This document shows, in pieces, positions 1 to 5,332 of a DNA stretch of 5,332 nt. Positions within the stretch are counted from its first letter, which is position 1. Every line of letters begins with the position of its first letter. The stretch lies in the NCBI GenBank assembly GCA_028693335.1, contig JAQUVR010000051.1, positions 1 through 5,332 on the forward strand, given 5' to 3'. Position numbers and translations under genes: made by a program. The notes beneath the pieces are model-generated. The model was not told where the DNA came from. It did no database searches and saw only the letters and a list, made by a program, of their open reading frames with translations. This DNA comes from Candidatus Iainarchaeum sp. Its GTDB lineage: Archaea; Iainarchaeota; Iainarchaeia; Iainarchaeales; CSSED10-239.

Positions 1-2
1 AA

Positions 3-71
3 GTAGGACTGAATAATTACAAAGGCATTTTAACACCACAGGTGATAATTGAAGATTATCAGGTAATATAA
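3..71 (+). CDS. 3' end of an unidentified upstream gene (partial; continues beyond the window start)
   Basis: It is the only frame open from the window edge (codons 3..68: VGLNNYKGILTPQVIIEDYQVI, stop TAA 69-71). The other two + frames hit stops at 4-6 and 14-16. The stop lies just before the Shine-Dalgarno of the next gene. It is too short to assign a family. Confidence 0.3.
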   Translation, partial: VGLNNYKGILTPQVIIEDYQVI

Positions 72-77
72 AGGGGA
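71..77 (+). promoter_or_regulatory. Shine-Dalgarno-like site for the free-standing homing endonuclease
   Basis: The purine block aagggga is followed by a 7-nt spacer before ATG 84. Confidence 0.5.
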
Positions 78-83
78 ATAGAT

Positions 84-923
84 ATGAGTTATATAATAGA
101 TTTATACACCCAAGGCAATTCTGCGTTAAAAATTTCTAAACAAGAAAATATTCCTGTTCATCAAATATACAAAATATTGGAAAAAAACAATATTCCAAGA
201 AGAAGCAATCGAATAAATAATAAAAAATATAGTTGCAATGAAGATTATTTTGAGAATATAAATACGTCAGAAAAAGCATATTGGTTAGGTTTTTTATACG
301 CTGATGGCTTTGTTTCAAAAAATGAAAAATTTTATAATAGAGGATCGTTAGGAATATCTTTGGCAATAGAAGACAAAGAACATTTAGAAACATTAAATAA
401 AGATTTAAATTCAAATTATCCTATAAACATATATAGTGTAGTTAATGGTTATAAAATTGGTATTCAATATGCAAGAATAATTATTAAAAGTGAAAAAATA
501 TTTAATGATTTGATTGATAAGGGTTTAATTGAAAGAAAATCAGAGATTAAAAAACGTCCAAAAAAAATACCAGAAGAATTAATTAAATATTTTATACTTG
601 GATATTTTGATGGGAATGGTTGTATTTCAATACATAGAAGAAAAAATAATGATAAGTTGGATTTTAAATTTAGAATTACAAGTACAGATGATGTATTATA
701 TTTTATTACAGATTATTTATATAACAATAAATTAATATACAATAAAAGAAAATTAGACAAACGACACATATACGATATTGTCTCTAATTTAGAATACGGA
801 GGGAATAGGCAAGTATATAAAATTATGCACCATCTGTATCAAAATACACCCAGATTTTTAAAAAGAAAACATGAAAGATATTTAATATTAAAAAATCAAC
901 TTATGAAAGAAGGGAAAATATGA
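84..923 (+). CDS. Free-standing two-motif LAGLIDADG homing endonuclease with an N-terminal HTH-like extension
   Basis: The 279-aa ORF has two LAGLIDADG-type motifs: AYWLGFLYADGFVS (about nt 276-317) and KYFILGYFDGNGCIS (about nt 585-629). An ERKS element sits between them, as is common in phage and intein LAGLIDADG enzymes. The N-terminal roughly 40 aa (IDLYTQGNSALKISKQENIPVHQIYKIL) resemble a small helix-turn-helix. ATG 84 has an upstream SD. Stop TGA 921-923 overlaps the dnaE ATG 920-922. Confidence 0.85.
   Translation: MSYIIDLYTQGNSALKISKQENIPVHQIYKILEKNNIPRRSNRINNKKYSCNEDYFENINTSEKAYWLGFLYADGFVSKNEKFYNRGSLGISLAIEDKEHLETLNKDLNSNYPINIYSVVNGYKIGIQYARIIIKSEKIFNDLIDKGLIERKSEIKKRPKKIPEELIKYFILGYFDGNGCISIHRRKNNDKLDFKFRITSTDDVLYFITDYLYNNKLIYNKRKLDKRHIYDIVSNLEYGGNRQVYKIMHHLYQNTPRFLKRKHERYLILKNQLMKEGKI
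907..915 (+). promoter_or_regulatory. Shine-Dalgarno-like site for dnaE, embedded in the 3' end of the upstream endonuclease ORF
   Basis: The sequence aagaaggga ends 5 nt before ATG 920. The ATGA stop/start overlap suggests translational coupling. Confidence 0.4.
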
Positions 924-3220
924 TTAATTTACATGTTCATGATGCAAAAGGTTCATTATTGGATTCTATTGCAACAGTTGATAAAATAGTTGAATTTGCA
1001 AAAAAAAATAATCAAACTGCGATAGCATTAACCAATCATGGAATTATGACTTCATTTGTTGATTTTGTGAAAGAATGTAATAAAAATGATATTAAGCCTA
1101 TCATTGGATGTGAAATTTATGAAACTGATGACATGCATGAGAAGCAAGACACTAGAGATTATCAACAACCAAGATATCATTTAATATTATTGGCAAAAAA
1201 TAAGATTGGTTTGCAAAACTTATTTAAAATAGTATCTATTTCCAATACAGAAGGTTTTTATAAAAAACCAAGAGCATCCTTAGATTGGATTGAAAAAAAT
1301 AATTGTGGGAAAGGAATTATATGTTTAACTGCTTGTCAAGCAGGTAGATTAAGTAAGTATTTAATTAATGATAAAGAATTAGAAGCAATACAATTTGTTA
1401 AACAATTGCAATCTATATTTGATTATGTGTCATGTGAGATACAATCCCATAAAACGATTGATCAGCACAATGCAAATAAAAAAATATATGAATTTTCACA
1501 AAAATATAATTTGCCTTATGTTATTACCACTGATGCTCATATGATAAATAAAAACGAAATTGACACTCATGCAATTTTTGTTGAAATCGGAGAAGGAAGA
1601 GAAGTAGGAGAGAGTTATGTTGATTGTTATTTACAAACAGATTCAGATGTTTACAATATTTTAGAAAAACAATTTTCAAAAGAAATTATAAAAGAGGGTA
1701 TTAATGAAACTATTTTAATTTCAAATATGATTGAAAATATTGATATTGGTTTAAATAATGGTGTTATAATGCCTAAAATACCTGTGCAAGAAGGATTTAA
1801 TTCAAATAAAGAATATTTGAGACATTTAGTTTTCAAAGATTTTGAAAAAAAGTTTTCTCATTTATTAGCAGAAGATCAACAAATAAGAAAAGATAGACTT
1901 GAAATGGAATTGCCTATTTTATATGAGTTAAATTATACAGATTATTTTATTATGTTATATATGTTGGTAGAAGAAGCAAAAAAGAGGGATATCCCAATAG
2001 GGTATTCTAGAGGTTCAGGAGCAAATTGTTTATGTCTTTATATGTTAGGTGTAACTCAAATAGACAGCATTAGATGGGACTTAGATTTTTCAAGATTTGC
2101 TAATTTGGGTAGAAAATCAATTGCTGATTTTGATTTTGATATTTCCAAAAATAGACGAAAAGAATTTATTGAAATATCGGAAGAACTTTTTGGGAAAGAG
2201 AATGTTGCACCAATTGCTACATTTAATACTTTAAGTACAAAAGTAGCAATAAGAGACGTTGGTAAAGTATTAGATGAAAAATCAGAAGAGTATAAAGGTA
2301 AGATACCTTATAAATTACGTGATGAAGTGGCAAAGATGATACCTACTATTAATACTATAAATGATTTAGGTGAGGAAGAAGAAAAAGAAGTATTATTAAG
2401 AGATGTGTTGTTTAAAAACGAAAGATTAAAAGAAATATATGAGCAATATCCCTTGTGGTTTAAGTATGTTATGGAATTAGAAGGTTTGCCTAAAAGTATG
2501 GGTAGACATGCAGCAGGAACTATAATAACTCCCAATCCAGTTGTTAAATATTGTCCTATTTGTTATGATTCTGAAGATAATATTATGATTCAATTAGAAA
2601 TGCATTCAGCAATGGATGATTTAGGTTTAACTAAAATGGATTATCTTGGACTTGAAACAGTAGACATTGTAGATGACACATTAAGAATGGCAGGATTAAC
2701 TTGGGATGATGTAAATATAGATCACTTAAATCTTGAGGATTCAGAAGTATATGAAAAAGTTTATAAAAGTGGCAATACCATTGGAATATTTCAAATGGAA
2801 TCTGCTGAGGCAAGAAGAATGTGTATAGAAGCAGAAGTTGATAATGTAGAAGATATAATAGTCATTAATGCAGCAAACCGACCAGGAACAAAAGACAATT
2901 TCCCTGATTATTGTAAAAACAAAAAATATCCCAATGAAATTGAAGTGTTGCATGAGGATTTGAAGAAAATATTTAATAAAACTCAATATGTTTTACTTTA
3001 TCAGGAGCAAGCATTACAGTTATTTAGATACGCTGGTTTTCCTGAAGAAGAGGTAGATTCTGCGAGAAGAGCAATTGGGAAAAAATTGAAAGATGAAATG
3101 GAAAAATTAGAGATTAAGTTTAAAGAGGGATTGTTAAACAAAAATTGGAATGAAGATCAGATTAATGAAATATGGGGACTAATGCTTAAGCAAGCCGATT
3201 ATTCGTTTAATCGAGGGCAT
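920..3220 (+). CDS. dnaE: DNA polymerase III alpha subunit (DnaE-type, family C), exon 1 (767 codons)
   Basis: PHP-domain motifs: MINLHVHD (HxH), LLDS, TNHG, GCEIY, YHLILLA, LTACQAG, TTDAH. Polymerase core motifs: GYSRGSGANCLCLYMLGVTQID (2000..), ADFDFDIS (2123..), GRHAAG, KMDYLGLETV (2633..), IFQMES, NRPG, LLYQEQ and FNRGH, which ends at 3220. The track ORF continues for 11 non-homologous codons (KIVCHNMVTYC) to TAA 3254-3256, and I read that tail as intron sequence. Confidence 0.9.
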
Positions 3221-3364
3221 AAAATTGTGTGCCACAATATGGTGACATATTGTTAAAAACTTCCGAAACTGCTGGAAACCCCTTAGAGCCTTATAAACTA
3301 CAACGTAATCAGTAATGATAAGCGTGAATGTTTGAAAATTATAAGGATTGGGCAATCAGCATGG
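3221..3364 (+). ncRNA. Group I ribozyme 5' half (IGS/P1, P2, P3, P4-P5 domain, P4')
   Basis: See the helix coordinates in the intron feature. The segment is visibly richer in G+C than the flanking coding DNA (cttccgaaactgctggaaaccccttagagcc). Confidence 0.75.
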
Positions 3365-4226
3365 AAATTATCGTGTATATAGATTAATAATTAGGAGGTA
3401 TATAATTACAAATAAAAAATATTCAAACGAAATAGAAAGACAAATAGTTGATGAATATCTTAACGGAGCAAGCACAAAATATTTGAAAGACAAATATAAT
3501 TTTAAAACGAATAAGTCAATTATAGATAAAGTTAAAAAGTATGGTGAAAATCCAAGGACTCAAAGAGAAGAATTGATGTTAAATAAAACATATGAGGAAT
3601 TTTCAATGTCTATAATTGATAGTTGGTTTAAAGCATATTATTTAGGGTTAATAATTGCAGATGGTTATATTGTTAATAACGTAGTCGGCATTGATATGGT
3701 AGACGAAGATGTTATACAATTTATATCAAATATTATTGATAAACCATATAATATAATAAAAAGAAAACCACCGAGACAAAATAAATATAGAATTACCCTA
3801 AATAGTCCACGTTTAATTGATGAATTTAAACGGTTAAATATTGGAGAAAGAAAATCAAAAACATTAGGTGCAATAAACCTATATGATATTGAATATAAAT
3901 ATTTTCCTTATATAATACGTGGATTGATTGATGGAGACGGATGGATTAGAAAAGATGGCAAAGAATTTTTTATATGTAGCGCTTCGTTAGAATTCATAAA
4001 ATGGTTAAAAAACAAAATGGAAGAAAAAATATATATGCAAGATTTAAATATTGTTCAACAAGATGAAATTAATAAAACCACAATGTATCAATTAAGATCA
4101 TCTTTAAAAAGAAACATTAATATATTAAAAGTCTTGGTATATGACCAACCTTATGGAATGCAAAGAAAATATAATCTTATACACGATAAACCTTCAGAGA
4201 CTATAATGGAAGATACTTTATATTAA
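3348..4226 (+). CDS. Intron-encoded two-motif LAGLIDADG homing endonuclease (start codon uncertain: TTG 3348 per the track, or a non-canonical start near 3402-3405 after the AGGAGG)
   Basis: LAGLIDADG motifs are KAYYLGLIIADGYIV (about nt 3633-3675) and PYIIRGLIDGDGWIRK (about nt 3909-3956), with GERKS between them. The N-terminal part (IERQIVDEYLNGASTKYLKDKYNFKTNKSIIDKVKKYG) is HTH-like. It aligns by eye with the 84..923 protein. Stop TAA 4224-4226. It uses a different frame from both dnaE exons. Confidence 0.85.
   Translation: MGNQHGNYRVYRLIIRRYIITNKKYSNEIERQIVDEYLNGASTKYLKDKYNFKTNKSIIDKVKKYGENPRTQREELMLNKTYEEFSMSIIDSWFKAYYLGLIIADGYIVNNVVGIDMVDEDVIQFISNIIDKPYNIIKRKPPRQNKYRITLNSPRLIDEFKRLNIGERKSKTLGAINLYDIEYKYFPYIIRGLIDGDGWIRKDGKEFFICSASLEFIKWLKNKMEEKIYMQDLNIVQQDEINKTTMYQLRSSLKRNINILKVLVYDQPYGMQRKYNLIHDKPSETIMEDTLY
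3393..3398 (+). promoter_or_regulatory. Strong Shine-Dalgarno (AGGAGG) inside the intron, presumably serving the intron endonuclease
   Basis: A perfect AGGAGG lies in frame within the track ORF. The following in-frame codons are UAU AUA AUU ACA, so no AUG, GUG or UUG sits at canonical spacing. AUU 3405 is 6 nt downstream. Confidence 0.5.
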
Positions 4227-4293
4227 AGTATATGGGATAGTCCAGACCACAACATATTTATATAATATGGCTTGGGAAACCAAGTGTGGTAAG
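4193..4293 (+). ncRNA. Group I ribozyme 3' half (P6', P7, P3', P8, P7', P9 three-way junction, terminal G)
   Basis: It contains the R-like UUCAGAGACUAUA and S-like GAUAGUCC blocks, perfect stems P7 (6 bp), P8 (8 bp), P9 (6 bp), and two nested hairpins, one with a GAAA loop. It ends ...GGUAAG with G4293. Confidence 0.8.
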
Positions 4294-5332
4294 GCCGTAG
4301 CATATGGTTTGCTTAGTTATCTTACAGCATATTTAAAAACGCATTATCCTTTAGAATTTATGACAGCATGTTTAACCGCCAAGAGTGATAATATGTCAAA
4401 ATTAAGTATCTTTATTAATGAATGTCACAGGTTAAATATTCAAGTTGCACCACCAAACATTAATTTATCAGAACGAAATTTTACTGCAATAAAAAATAAA
4501 AATAAAATATTATTTGGATTATATGCAATTAAAGGCGTAGGAGATGCAGTAGTAGATACAATCATAGAAAATAGAAGATATGAAGGGTTTGATGACTTTT
4601 TATCTAAAACAAAGGAATCTGGAAAGATAACCAAAGGAACAATTATCAAGTTGGCAAAAAGTGGTTGTTTTCCAACAAAAAATAAAAGAAATTTTTTGCT
4701 TAGATATGCAAATAAATTATTTGAAAATGATTATAAAAATGAAATTTTTGAAGAAAGAAAAACTTTTAAATCAGTTAAGGAATTAAAAGAAGTATGGGGA
4801 ATTGATACTGATACAATCAAAAATAAGCAAGAGAGACTTAAATTATTCAATCAAAAAAGAAAAGAAAAATTTGACAATGAAGAAGTAGATAGAACATTCA
4901 AAAAAGAAGATGCCCGACAAAAATATATTAAAGAATTTTCGTCAAAATATTTACAAGAAGAATTTATGTGGGAGTTTGAAACTTTATCAATGTTTATTAC
5001 ATATGACCCATTAAAAGAAGCATATAAATATGTTACTCCTTGGGACGAAGTAGACGGTGGAGAAAAAGCAGTTGCTATCTGTGTAGTTGTAGACATTAAA
5101 AGAAAAAAAGATAAAAACAACAATGCTTTTGCCTATTTAGACTTATATACTCCTTATGGGATAATTGAAGCTACTTGTTGGGCAAGGCAATATAAAAACT
5201 TTAATGATTTAATTAAAAAAGGGAATAGTCTTGCAATTTTAGGACGGAAAAGAGATGGACAGTTTTTTGTTGAGTCAATGAAAACTTATAACCAATGGTT
5301 AAAAGATAGAGAAATTAAAATACATAGGAGAT
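4294..5332 (+). CDS. dnaE: DNA polymerase III alpha subunit (DnaE-type), exon 2; partial, continues past the window end
   Basis: I translated this frame codon by codon from 4294 to 5331 and found no stop (346 codons). It reads AVAYGLLSYLTAYLKTHYPLEFMTACLTA (the continuation of the FNKSH block). It then has the HhH region ILFGLYAIKGVGDAVVDTIIENR (about 4507-4575). An OB-fold-like C-terminal region follows: AVAICVVVDIKRKKDKNNNAFAYLDLYTPYGIIEATCW...LAILGRKRDGQFFV (about 5068-5271). It is absent from the ORF track because there is no stop codon in the window. Confidence 0.9.

Follow-up and report, generated by a model that had tools for sequence, protein, structure and literature searches.

The window analysed here is the whole of a 5,332-nt contig (JAQUVR010000051.1; C87) from a 646-kb, 100-contig metagenome-assembled genome (MAG; G000, GCA_028693335.1) assigned to Candidatus Iainarchaeum sp., and our subject is the gene at 84-923 on its forward strand, here called HE1. 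It lies directly 5′ of dnaE, a phage-type DNA polymerase III (Pol III) alpha gene, and encodes a predicted helix-turn-helix (HTH) protein with two LAGLIDADG motifs. We conclude that HE1 is quite probably a mobile free-standing homing endonuclease gene (HEG) that is still active in some form. It is missing, with base-exact empty sites, from close relatives of the phages that carry it, and its reading frame is held intact by purifying selection. Its second catalytic position holds Asn where Asp or Glu is expected, and we propose tentatively, stopping just short of calling it probable, that the encoded enzyme is a natural nickase or a strongly strand-asymmetric cutter.

Position of HE1 and its distribution among related phages

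The gene and its immediate surroundings comprise the following features.

1..71, + strand: 3′ end of a RecJ-like single-stranded DNA exonuclease gene (recJ), stop TAA at 69-71
70..76, + strand: Shine-Dalgarno (SD)-like AAAGGGG, 7 nt 5′ of the HE1 ATG, read from the sequence
84..923, + strand: HE1, free-standing HTH and double-LAGLIDADG homing endonuclease gene, 279 amino acids (aa), ATG start, intact open reading frame (ORF)
910..915, + strand: dnaE SD-like AAGGGA within the last codons of the HE1 coding sequence, read from the sequence
920..923, + strand: ATGA overlap, with the HE1 stop TGA (921-923) over the dnaE start ATG (920-922)

HE1 has its own start, stop and SD, and its frame is separate from those of its neighbours. 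The upstream stop, the overlap of the HE1 stop with the dnaE start and the dnaE SD inside HE1 are all as the preliminary description of this DNA had given them; since the last codons of HE1 supply the dnaE SD and overlap its start, the insertion is not polar. The gap from the recJ stop to the HE1 start is 12 nt in the window and 0 nt in the related locus L020, and HE1 ends at the dnaE ATG, flanks that leave no room for a ribozyme. A domain scan of HE1 found no Hint domain, the sign of an intein, and an Rfam scan of the whole window returned no match. With the Pfam and PHROG matches given below, these results bear out the earlier view of a free-standing LAGLIDADG gene outside any intron or intein context. 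Five other assemblies (L015, L016, L051, L052 and a contig of sequencing run X7), six with the window, share the HE1 junctions, which are thus not an assembly artefact. The upstream gene was identified through L015, which is 99% identical to the window: positions 1..71 are identical to the last 23 codons of a 577-aa RecJ-like ORF (L015:3419-5152) that matches phrog_2484 at 5e-163 and carries the Pfam domains DHH and RecJ_OB of a DHH exonuclease. A search for promoters and terminators around HE1 found 17, against 15.9 expected from shuffles, and 0 terminators. RNA folds at the HE1 and dnaE starts were no more stable than shuffles (z -0.58 and +1.22), leaving a hairpin that sequesters the ribosome-binding site unsupported. 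HE1 lies in a primase-recJ-dnaE replication operon with no detectable promoter, terminator or regulatory hairpin of its own.

To survey the distribution of the gene, 36 related viral loci were retrieved by DnaE and scanned for HE1 and for the content of the slot that it occupies. HE1 was present at 99% identity in L015/L016 and in the metagenomic L051/L052, and a 286-aa orthologue (53-54% identity) was found in exactly the same slot of L020/L033/L035. It was absent from sister phages of each of these groups (L017-L019, L021 and L022). There recJ and dnaE overlap, by 8-23 nt in L017-L019 (DnaE 84%) and by 10 nt in L022, and the empty junction of L021 reads TAA-t-ATG. The closest comparison is that of L020 with L021 (DnaE 97.6% and RecJ 89.9% identical in aa), which differ by an 861-nt insert whose ends fall base-exactly at the recJ stop and the dnaE ATG. 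The presence/absence polymorphism with precise junctions that the preliminary description had proposed to look for is therefore there, and its alternative, a gene universal among relatives with no empty sites, is not what we found, as sister phages have recJ abutting dnaE. To explain where HE1 occurs on the DnaE tree, at least two gains or losses must be assumed. Relatives lacking HE1 have the dnaE SD within the 3′ end of recJ, which shows that dnaE can do without HE1.

Synonymous divergence between L020 and L021 was about 0.5-0.65 in the primase gene, recJ and the first 20 dnaE codons and 0.14-0.38 in the remaining dnaE. In this pair HE1 thus sits at a mosaic boundary, as described for HEGs elsewhere (PMC10448857). 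The ratio of nonsynonymous to synonymous substitutions (dN/dS) between the window and L020 was 0.31 for HE1, to be read as an upper bound because dS is near saturation in this comparison, 0.41 for RecJ and 0.15 for DnaE. Between the two HE1-positive phage clades, aa identity was 53% for HE1, 47% for the primase and 40% for RecJ. By these estimates HE1 is intact, under purifying selection (dN/dS about 0.3), and not decaying.

In two sequencing runs, contigs (X10, record 10; X1, record 1) match window positions 1-93 exactly and then end or diverge, a pattern that hints at a second, divergent allele occurring alongside and parting from the first shortly after the HE1 start, at window position 93.

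Predicted structure, active sites and proposed mode of cleavage

HE1 matched Pfam LAGLIDADG_3 at 30.6 bits (curated cut-off 22.5) and PHROG 4645, 'endonuclease', at 1e-52, and its single chain holds two LAGLIDADG motifs, YWLGFLYADG (residues 66-75) and FILGYFDGNG (residues 170-179). Its first 45 residues gave sub-threshold Pfam matches to HTH domains of the resolvase/TrmB type (HTH_7/TrmB). An AlphaFold2 model built from 62 homologues (predicted local distance difference test, pLDDT, 94.8) places an HTH first, then a linker and two alpha/beta LAGLIDADG half-domains, and predicts a pseudo-dimeric alpha-beta-beta-alpha-beta-beta-alpha fold with the motif helices packed at the interface. The top Foldseek matches of the model were I-AniI, I-Tsp061I and the I-OnuI/I-LtrI family (probability 1.00, E values 1e-9 to 3e-11). 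By predicted fold and by sequence HE1 is a monomeric two-motif LAGLIDADG protein; we do not class it as a two-site nuclease. The elements predicted by the model are the following.

87..185, + strand: N-terminal three-helix HTH module, residues 2-34 (AlphaFold2 helices 2-9, 14-21 and 25-34)
267..308, + strand: LAGLIDADG helix 1 (AlphaFold2 helix 62-74), ending in the catalytic D74 (GAT, 303-305)
573..620, + strand: LAGLIDADG helix 2 (AlphaFold2 helix 164-178), ending in N178 (AAT, 615-617), where Asp or Glu is expected

An Asp or Glu is expected at the end of each LAGLIDADG helix, and HE1 has one at the first helix, D74, and Asn at the second. The preliminary description had named D74 and D176 as the catalytic pair, of which D74 was placed correctly, at the end of helix 1. 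D176 is the structural sixth position of the motif GYFDGNG; the catalytic eighth position is N178, the last residue of helix 2, which aligned with the GDG Asp of I-Tsp061I and of HE2, the LAGLIDADG protein encoded within the dnaE intron of the window. The AAT codon is the same in all assemblies, and Asn is also found in an 86%-identical homologue (P0002) and in the 54% orthologue; every HE1 orthologue has it. D74 was invariant in 122 of 122 homologues and in about 100 of 100 representatives of 50%-identity clusters. Position 178 held Asp in 102 and Asn in 20 of the 122 homologues, and Asp in 86 and Asn in 15 of about 100 independent cluster representatives, with no other residue in either set. 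On a FastTree tree, parsimony placed eight changes to Asn178, at least five of them forced by well-supported branches, and Asn at this position thus appears to have arisen independently at least five to eight times, in about 15% of the family. No acidic residue that co-varies with N178, as compensation would require, was found among the homologue columns, and the invariant peripheral residues K152 and R261/K262 are kept in both halves of HE1. The strict choice of Asp or Asn at 178, with an unchanging D74, is in keeping with an enzyme whose first centre still relies on the shared metal site to catalyse cleavage.

Residue 200 of HE1 (window 681-683) is Gly in 87 of the 102 Asp-type homologues and Ser in five of the eight independent Asn178 clades, HE1 included; the change from G200 to Ser may have reshaped the second active site. 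The family is large: a cut-off of E ≤ 1e-3 gives 46,725 representatives and one of E ≤ 1e-30 gives 17,219 (50%-identity clusters), viral contigs hold at least 544 matches, and, judged by spacing to neighbouring ORFs, it appears to hold both intron-borne and free-standing members.

The characterised natural LAGLIDADG enzymes have, to our knowledge, Asp or Glu at both catalytic positions, and the literature that we looked at did not contradict this. Disabling one LAGLIDADG active site yields nickases, which a review lists only as engineered variants, for example I-AniI K227M and I-SceI K223I (PMC3017599). In single-chain I-CreI or I-MsoI, one D-to-N change in one half abolishes double-strand cleavage; for half-site D20N single-chain I-CreI such cleavage was undetectable, and nicking was reported only for D22N mMsoI (PMC2655683). 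Given N178 and these engineered changes, a double-strand break of the T4 Seg kind is not to be assumed for HE1. That the Asn178 members as a group are widespread natural strand-specific nicking HTH-LAGLIDADG homing enzymes that are still mobile, a kind so far obtained only by engineering, is a broader and rather doubtful proposal. If D/N enzymes do nick, they could serve as they are as strand-specific nickases with long sites, and LAGLIDADG homing would not require a double-strand break.

These observations can be assembled into what we take to be the likeliest mechanism. The genes recJ, HE1 and dnaE would be translated together as a coupled chain. Through its HTH and pseudo-dimeric LAGLIDADG core, HE1 would recognise the recJ-dnaE junction of phages lacking HE1, or their conserved first dnaE codons, which encode the PHP motif M-x-x-N-L-H-x-H, or both. 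During co-infection it would break the HE1-less DNA, most likely by a nick or a strongly strand-asymmetric cut and less likely by a clean cut of both strands. Replication could turn the nick into a break that triggers recombination, as for I-HmuI and I-BasI, HNH enzymes that nick, and recombinational repair would then copy HE1 in and drag flanking dnaE sequence along.

Three other explanations were weighed against this one. HE1 may be an ordinary double-strand cutter, in which Asn178 still ligates the shared metal or the protein is otherwise compensated, and which spreads by Seg- or Mob-type intronless homing. Its mobility signatures are as strong as those of any active HEG, the only replacement at 178 is Asn for Asp, isosteric and able to ligate a metal through its carbonyl oxygen, and the peripheral Lys and Arg residues are retained in both halves; yet nothing acidic co-varies with N178, and the characterised natural enzymes, as far as we know, are acidic at both positions. 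We therefore consider this explanation unlikely, also because one D-to-N change was enough to remove detectable double-strand cleavage in two engineered single-chain enzymes (PMC2655683). The second explanation takes HE1 to be catalytically dead or domesticated, either a site-specific binder (a regulator like WhiA, or a shield of the dnaE 5′ end against other nucleases) or a remnant kept for the SD and start of dnaE. N178 itself, the extra HTH domain, a dN/dS below 1, the dnaE SD in the HE1 3′ end and the label 'WhiA' that one source gives to a homologue would all suit it. A needed regulator, however, is not expected to show patchy spread and exact empty sites between very close phages, which mark a selfish insert; a remnant would not stay intact over 47% aa divergence, and relatives lacking HE1 express dnaE from the SD in recJ. 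The invariance of D74 and the restriction of position 178 to Asp or Asn across hundreds of diverged homologues further argue that a catalysis-related constraint persists, and we regard a dead or domesticated HE1 as quite improbable.

The third explanation, that HE1 is not free-standing at all but an intron or intein ORF, a collaborative partner of the dnaE intron or the product of a chimeric assembly, draws on members of the same family that do lie within genes (HE2, gp36 in the dnaE of phage 0305phi8-36, the dnaE ORF of phage KKP_3916 and the recJ-like gene of L068). It is contradicted by the 12-nt or 0-nt flank and the end at the dnaE ATG, which leave a ribozyme no space, by the separate frame and the lack of Hint and Rfam matches, by HE1-positive intron-less genomes that keep the intron site intact, and by the junctions shared among six independent assemblies; its probability is negligible and we take it as effectively refuted already. 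The reading of HE1 as a mobile HEG still active in some form also has observations against it. The HE1-positive and HE1-negative pair L015/L017 showed neither a co-conversion gradient around the insertion nor a step in divergence, and in L020/L021 only the step was seen and no gradient. The first dnaE codons held no consistent 'immunity' substitutions between phages with and without HE1, and no empty junction was found alongside HE1 in four sequencing runs, a weak point that comes from contigs only, those of X3 and X10 being too fragmentary. Finally, Asn at the catalytic position could equally mean an inactive enzyme.

The dnaE intron, the slot 5′ of dnaE and the origin of the DNA

The remainder of the window is taken up by dnaE and its intron.

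920..3220, + strand: dnaE exon 1 (PHP, Pol III alpha core, fingers), its end fixed by the intron-less alleles of L015/L016/L052 and the X7 contig
3221..4293, + strand: dnaE intron, 1,073 nt, carrying HE2, precisely absent from the HE1-positive L015/L016/L052 and the X7 contig
3348..4226, + strand: HE2, second LAGLIDADG gene, 26% identical to HE1 and in the same PHROG
4294..5332, + strand: dnaE exon 2 (HhH, OB), running off the contig end

As described earlier, dnaE has a normal N-terminus, with a PHP domain from residue 4, and it aligned there with the 36 relatives. Phages that are 99% identical differ in whether they have the dnaE intron: the window, L051 and run X1 carry it, and it is precisely absent from L015/L016 (between 8301 and 8302), L052 (between 7137 and 7138) and a 35-kb contig of the 2016 bioreactor run X7. 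In the HE1-positive, intron-less L015/L016/L052 the insertion site from -25 to +17 is identical to the spliced junction of the window, so HE1 does not target the intron site. We considered HE1 as a collaborative-homing partner of the dnaE intron and rejected it, as these three loci and the X7 contig keep that site uninterrupted. The two elements thus move independently.

The intron site is used in three clades. An intron at the same dnaE site of a distant phage (L044:8317-9379; DnaE 56%) carries a 57%-identical HE2 homologue, its ends resemble those of the window intron, and the slot 5′ of dnaE in that phage holds an OGG-type glycosylase gene. In L036 (8314-8526), and likewise in L037-L043, L045, L048 and L050, a 213-nt non-coding insert with in-frame stops lies at essentially the same FNRGH/A site as the window intron, with a mapped boundary offset of about 3 nt; the L036 insert had no Rfam match and a fold z-score of only -1.1. 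All ten loci of this clade that reach the slot have a free-standing LAGLIDADG_2 gene immediately before dnaE, and the sisters L034/L049 have neither the insert nor that gene. The pair of insert and LAGLIDADG_2 gene may be a case of collaborative homing or HEG turnover. In Alicyclobacillus phage KKP_3916 (L082, OQ846916: 59310-64403), the DnaE match is broken into three parts, and a 335-aa ORF of LAGLIDADG_3 and winged HTH type lies between them; all are annotated as hypothetical proteins, and the dnaE of this phage is probably split or intron-containing and unannotated. The HE1 family also has a member within a recJ-like gene (L068:3258-5514), where RecJ residues 18-148 and 146-417 are encoded about 1 kb apart in different frames. 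This gene looks to be interrupted by an intron; recJ is the neighbour of HE1 in the phage of the window.

The slot 5′ of dnaE was also compared in more distant clades (DnaE 56-65%), where the conserved gene upstream of it is a Dda-like helicase gene. Between this gene and dnaE the following were found.

HNH-AP2 gene: 7 loci
HNH gene of another type (phrog_559): 1 locus
LAGLIDADG_2 gene (PF03161): 10 loci
OGG glycosylase gene: 1 locus
Empty slot: 6 loci

The occupants differ among phages whose DnaE is otherwise nearly identical, and the LAGLIDADG_3 gene of the HE1 type fills the slot in two clades. The slot is thus repeatedly taken by four unrelated nuclease gene families, which supports the idea of a hotspot. 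The suggestion that the whole dnaE locus is a hotspot of competitive homing gains from both sites, the slot with its four nuclease families or nothing and the intron site. HEGs are enriched beside DNA polymerase genes (Barth, Dunham & Seed 2023, PMC10448857), and the terms 'HEG island' and 'HEG turnover' were used for ICP1-like and other phages in which one site holds homologous, same-class or different-class HEGs (PMC10448857). HEGs of differing classes at the same location in related phages are what we found 5′ of dnaE.

Although binned with an archaeon, the contig has the content of a phage. The MAG encodes the archaeal polymerase PolD, with DP2 on its contig C38, and 39 of 40 relatives, closed genomes from its own family and order among them, lack any Pol III alpha. 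The window DNA is present at 99% identity in viral contigs of 65-137 kb (L015, L016, L052), and it was also found in digester, landfill, sludge and bioreactor metagenomes from 16 studies. The flanking gene order is primase, RecJ-like exonuclease, HE1 (where present), DnaE, RecD-like helicase and sigma factor; the GC content of the window is 24-31%. The closest DnaE of an isolate is that of Clostridium phage Amboise (55%), and megablast of the window against isolated phages matched only about 95 nt of the intron core. The PolD of the MAG, the relatives without Pol III alpha, the viral contigs and the phage genes that flank HE1 together indicate, from gene content and sequence matches, that the contig is a fragment of an uncultured Firmicute-type bacterial phage mis-binned into an AT-rich archaeal bin, and it should not be read as an archaeon with a bacterial replicase. 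A distant Pol III alpha-like ORF on contig C42 of a MAG of the same genus (G008) is probably the same kind of contamination. The strongest LAGLIDADG_3 match of the MAG (G000:C99:1735-1968, 2e-16) lies inside an 842-aa open frame and is possibly an intein in an archaeal gene.

Comparison with known systems

As a feature of a genome HE1 is of an ordinary kind, a selfish nuclease gene next to the polymerase gene of a phage, in a slot contested by several nuclease families. What it adds is a clean natural example of a HEG island with HEG turnover, with base-exact empty sites, in a group of phages with dnaE-type polymerases and with a free-standing LAGLIDADG gene. Our search of the literature on free-standing LAGLIDADG genes returned only papers on organelles, and we know of no biochemically studied representative in a phage with a dnaE-type polymerase.

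In its setting HE1 resembles the Seg and Mob genes of T4 and the HEG islands of the ICP1 type, in which an optional nuclease gene is wedged between conserved essential genes beside the DNA polymerase gene; like the ICP1-type islands, the slot of HE1 holds varied HEGs in relatives and lies at a boundary of genetic exchange (PMC10448857). The free-standing enzymes of these phages are of the GIY-YIG, HNH or T5orf172 type, whereas HE1 is an HTH and double-LAGLIDADG protein with a D/N active-site pair. Its predicted fold matches I-AniI (1p8k), I-Tsp061I (2dch) and the I-OnuI/I-LtrI family, with two LAGLIDADG helices at a pseudo-dimer interface, though its sequence identity to LAGLIDADG enzymes of solved structure is only 12-23%. 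I-AniI, I-Tsp061I and the I-OnuI family are intron-encoded and have Asp or Glu at both positions; HE1 is free-standing, carries an additional HTH at its N-terminus, and has Asn as its second catalytic residue. I-HmuI and I-BasI, the nicking HNH enzymes of Bacillus phage DNA polymerase genes, offer a functional analogy only, namely that a single-strand break at a polymerase gene can drive homing; their fold differs from that of HE1, LAGLIDADG nickases are laboratory mutants, and nicking by HE1 is hypothetical. Domesticated proteins of the WhiA type have lost the catalytic residues, carry a C-terminal HTH and are universal in their lineage; unlike them, HE1 has an invariant D74, an N-terminal HTH and a patchy distribution.

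The nearest parallel to the arrangement in the window was found in Bacillus phage 0305phi8-36 (L081, EF583821: 164719-170345), with gp239 ('mobile nuclease'), gp240 (Pol III alpha) and gp36 ('mobile intron protein'). There too a free-standing nuclease gene, gp239, lies directly 5′ of an intron-bearing dnaE and overlaps it; gp240 is annotated in GenBank as 'interrupted by a mobile intron', and the intron ORF, gp36, is a LAGLIDADG_3 homologue of HE1 with 34% identity. The two loci differ in that the 5′ nuclease of 0305phi8-36 is an HNH protein and that of the window a LAGLIDADG protein, and their DnaE proteins are only distantly related. The insertion sites also look different, as judged by the start of the intron ORF and not by mapping: about 1.6 kb into dnaE in 0305phi8-36 and about 2.4 kb in the window.

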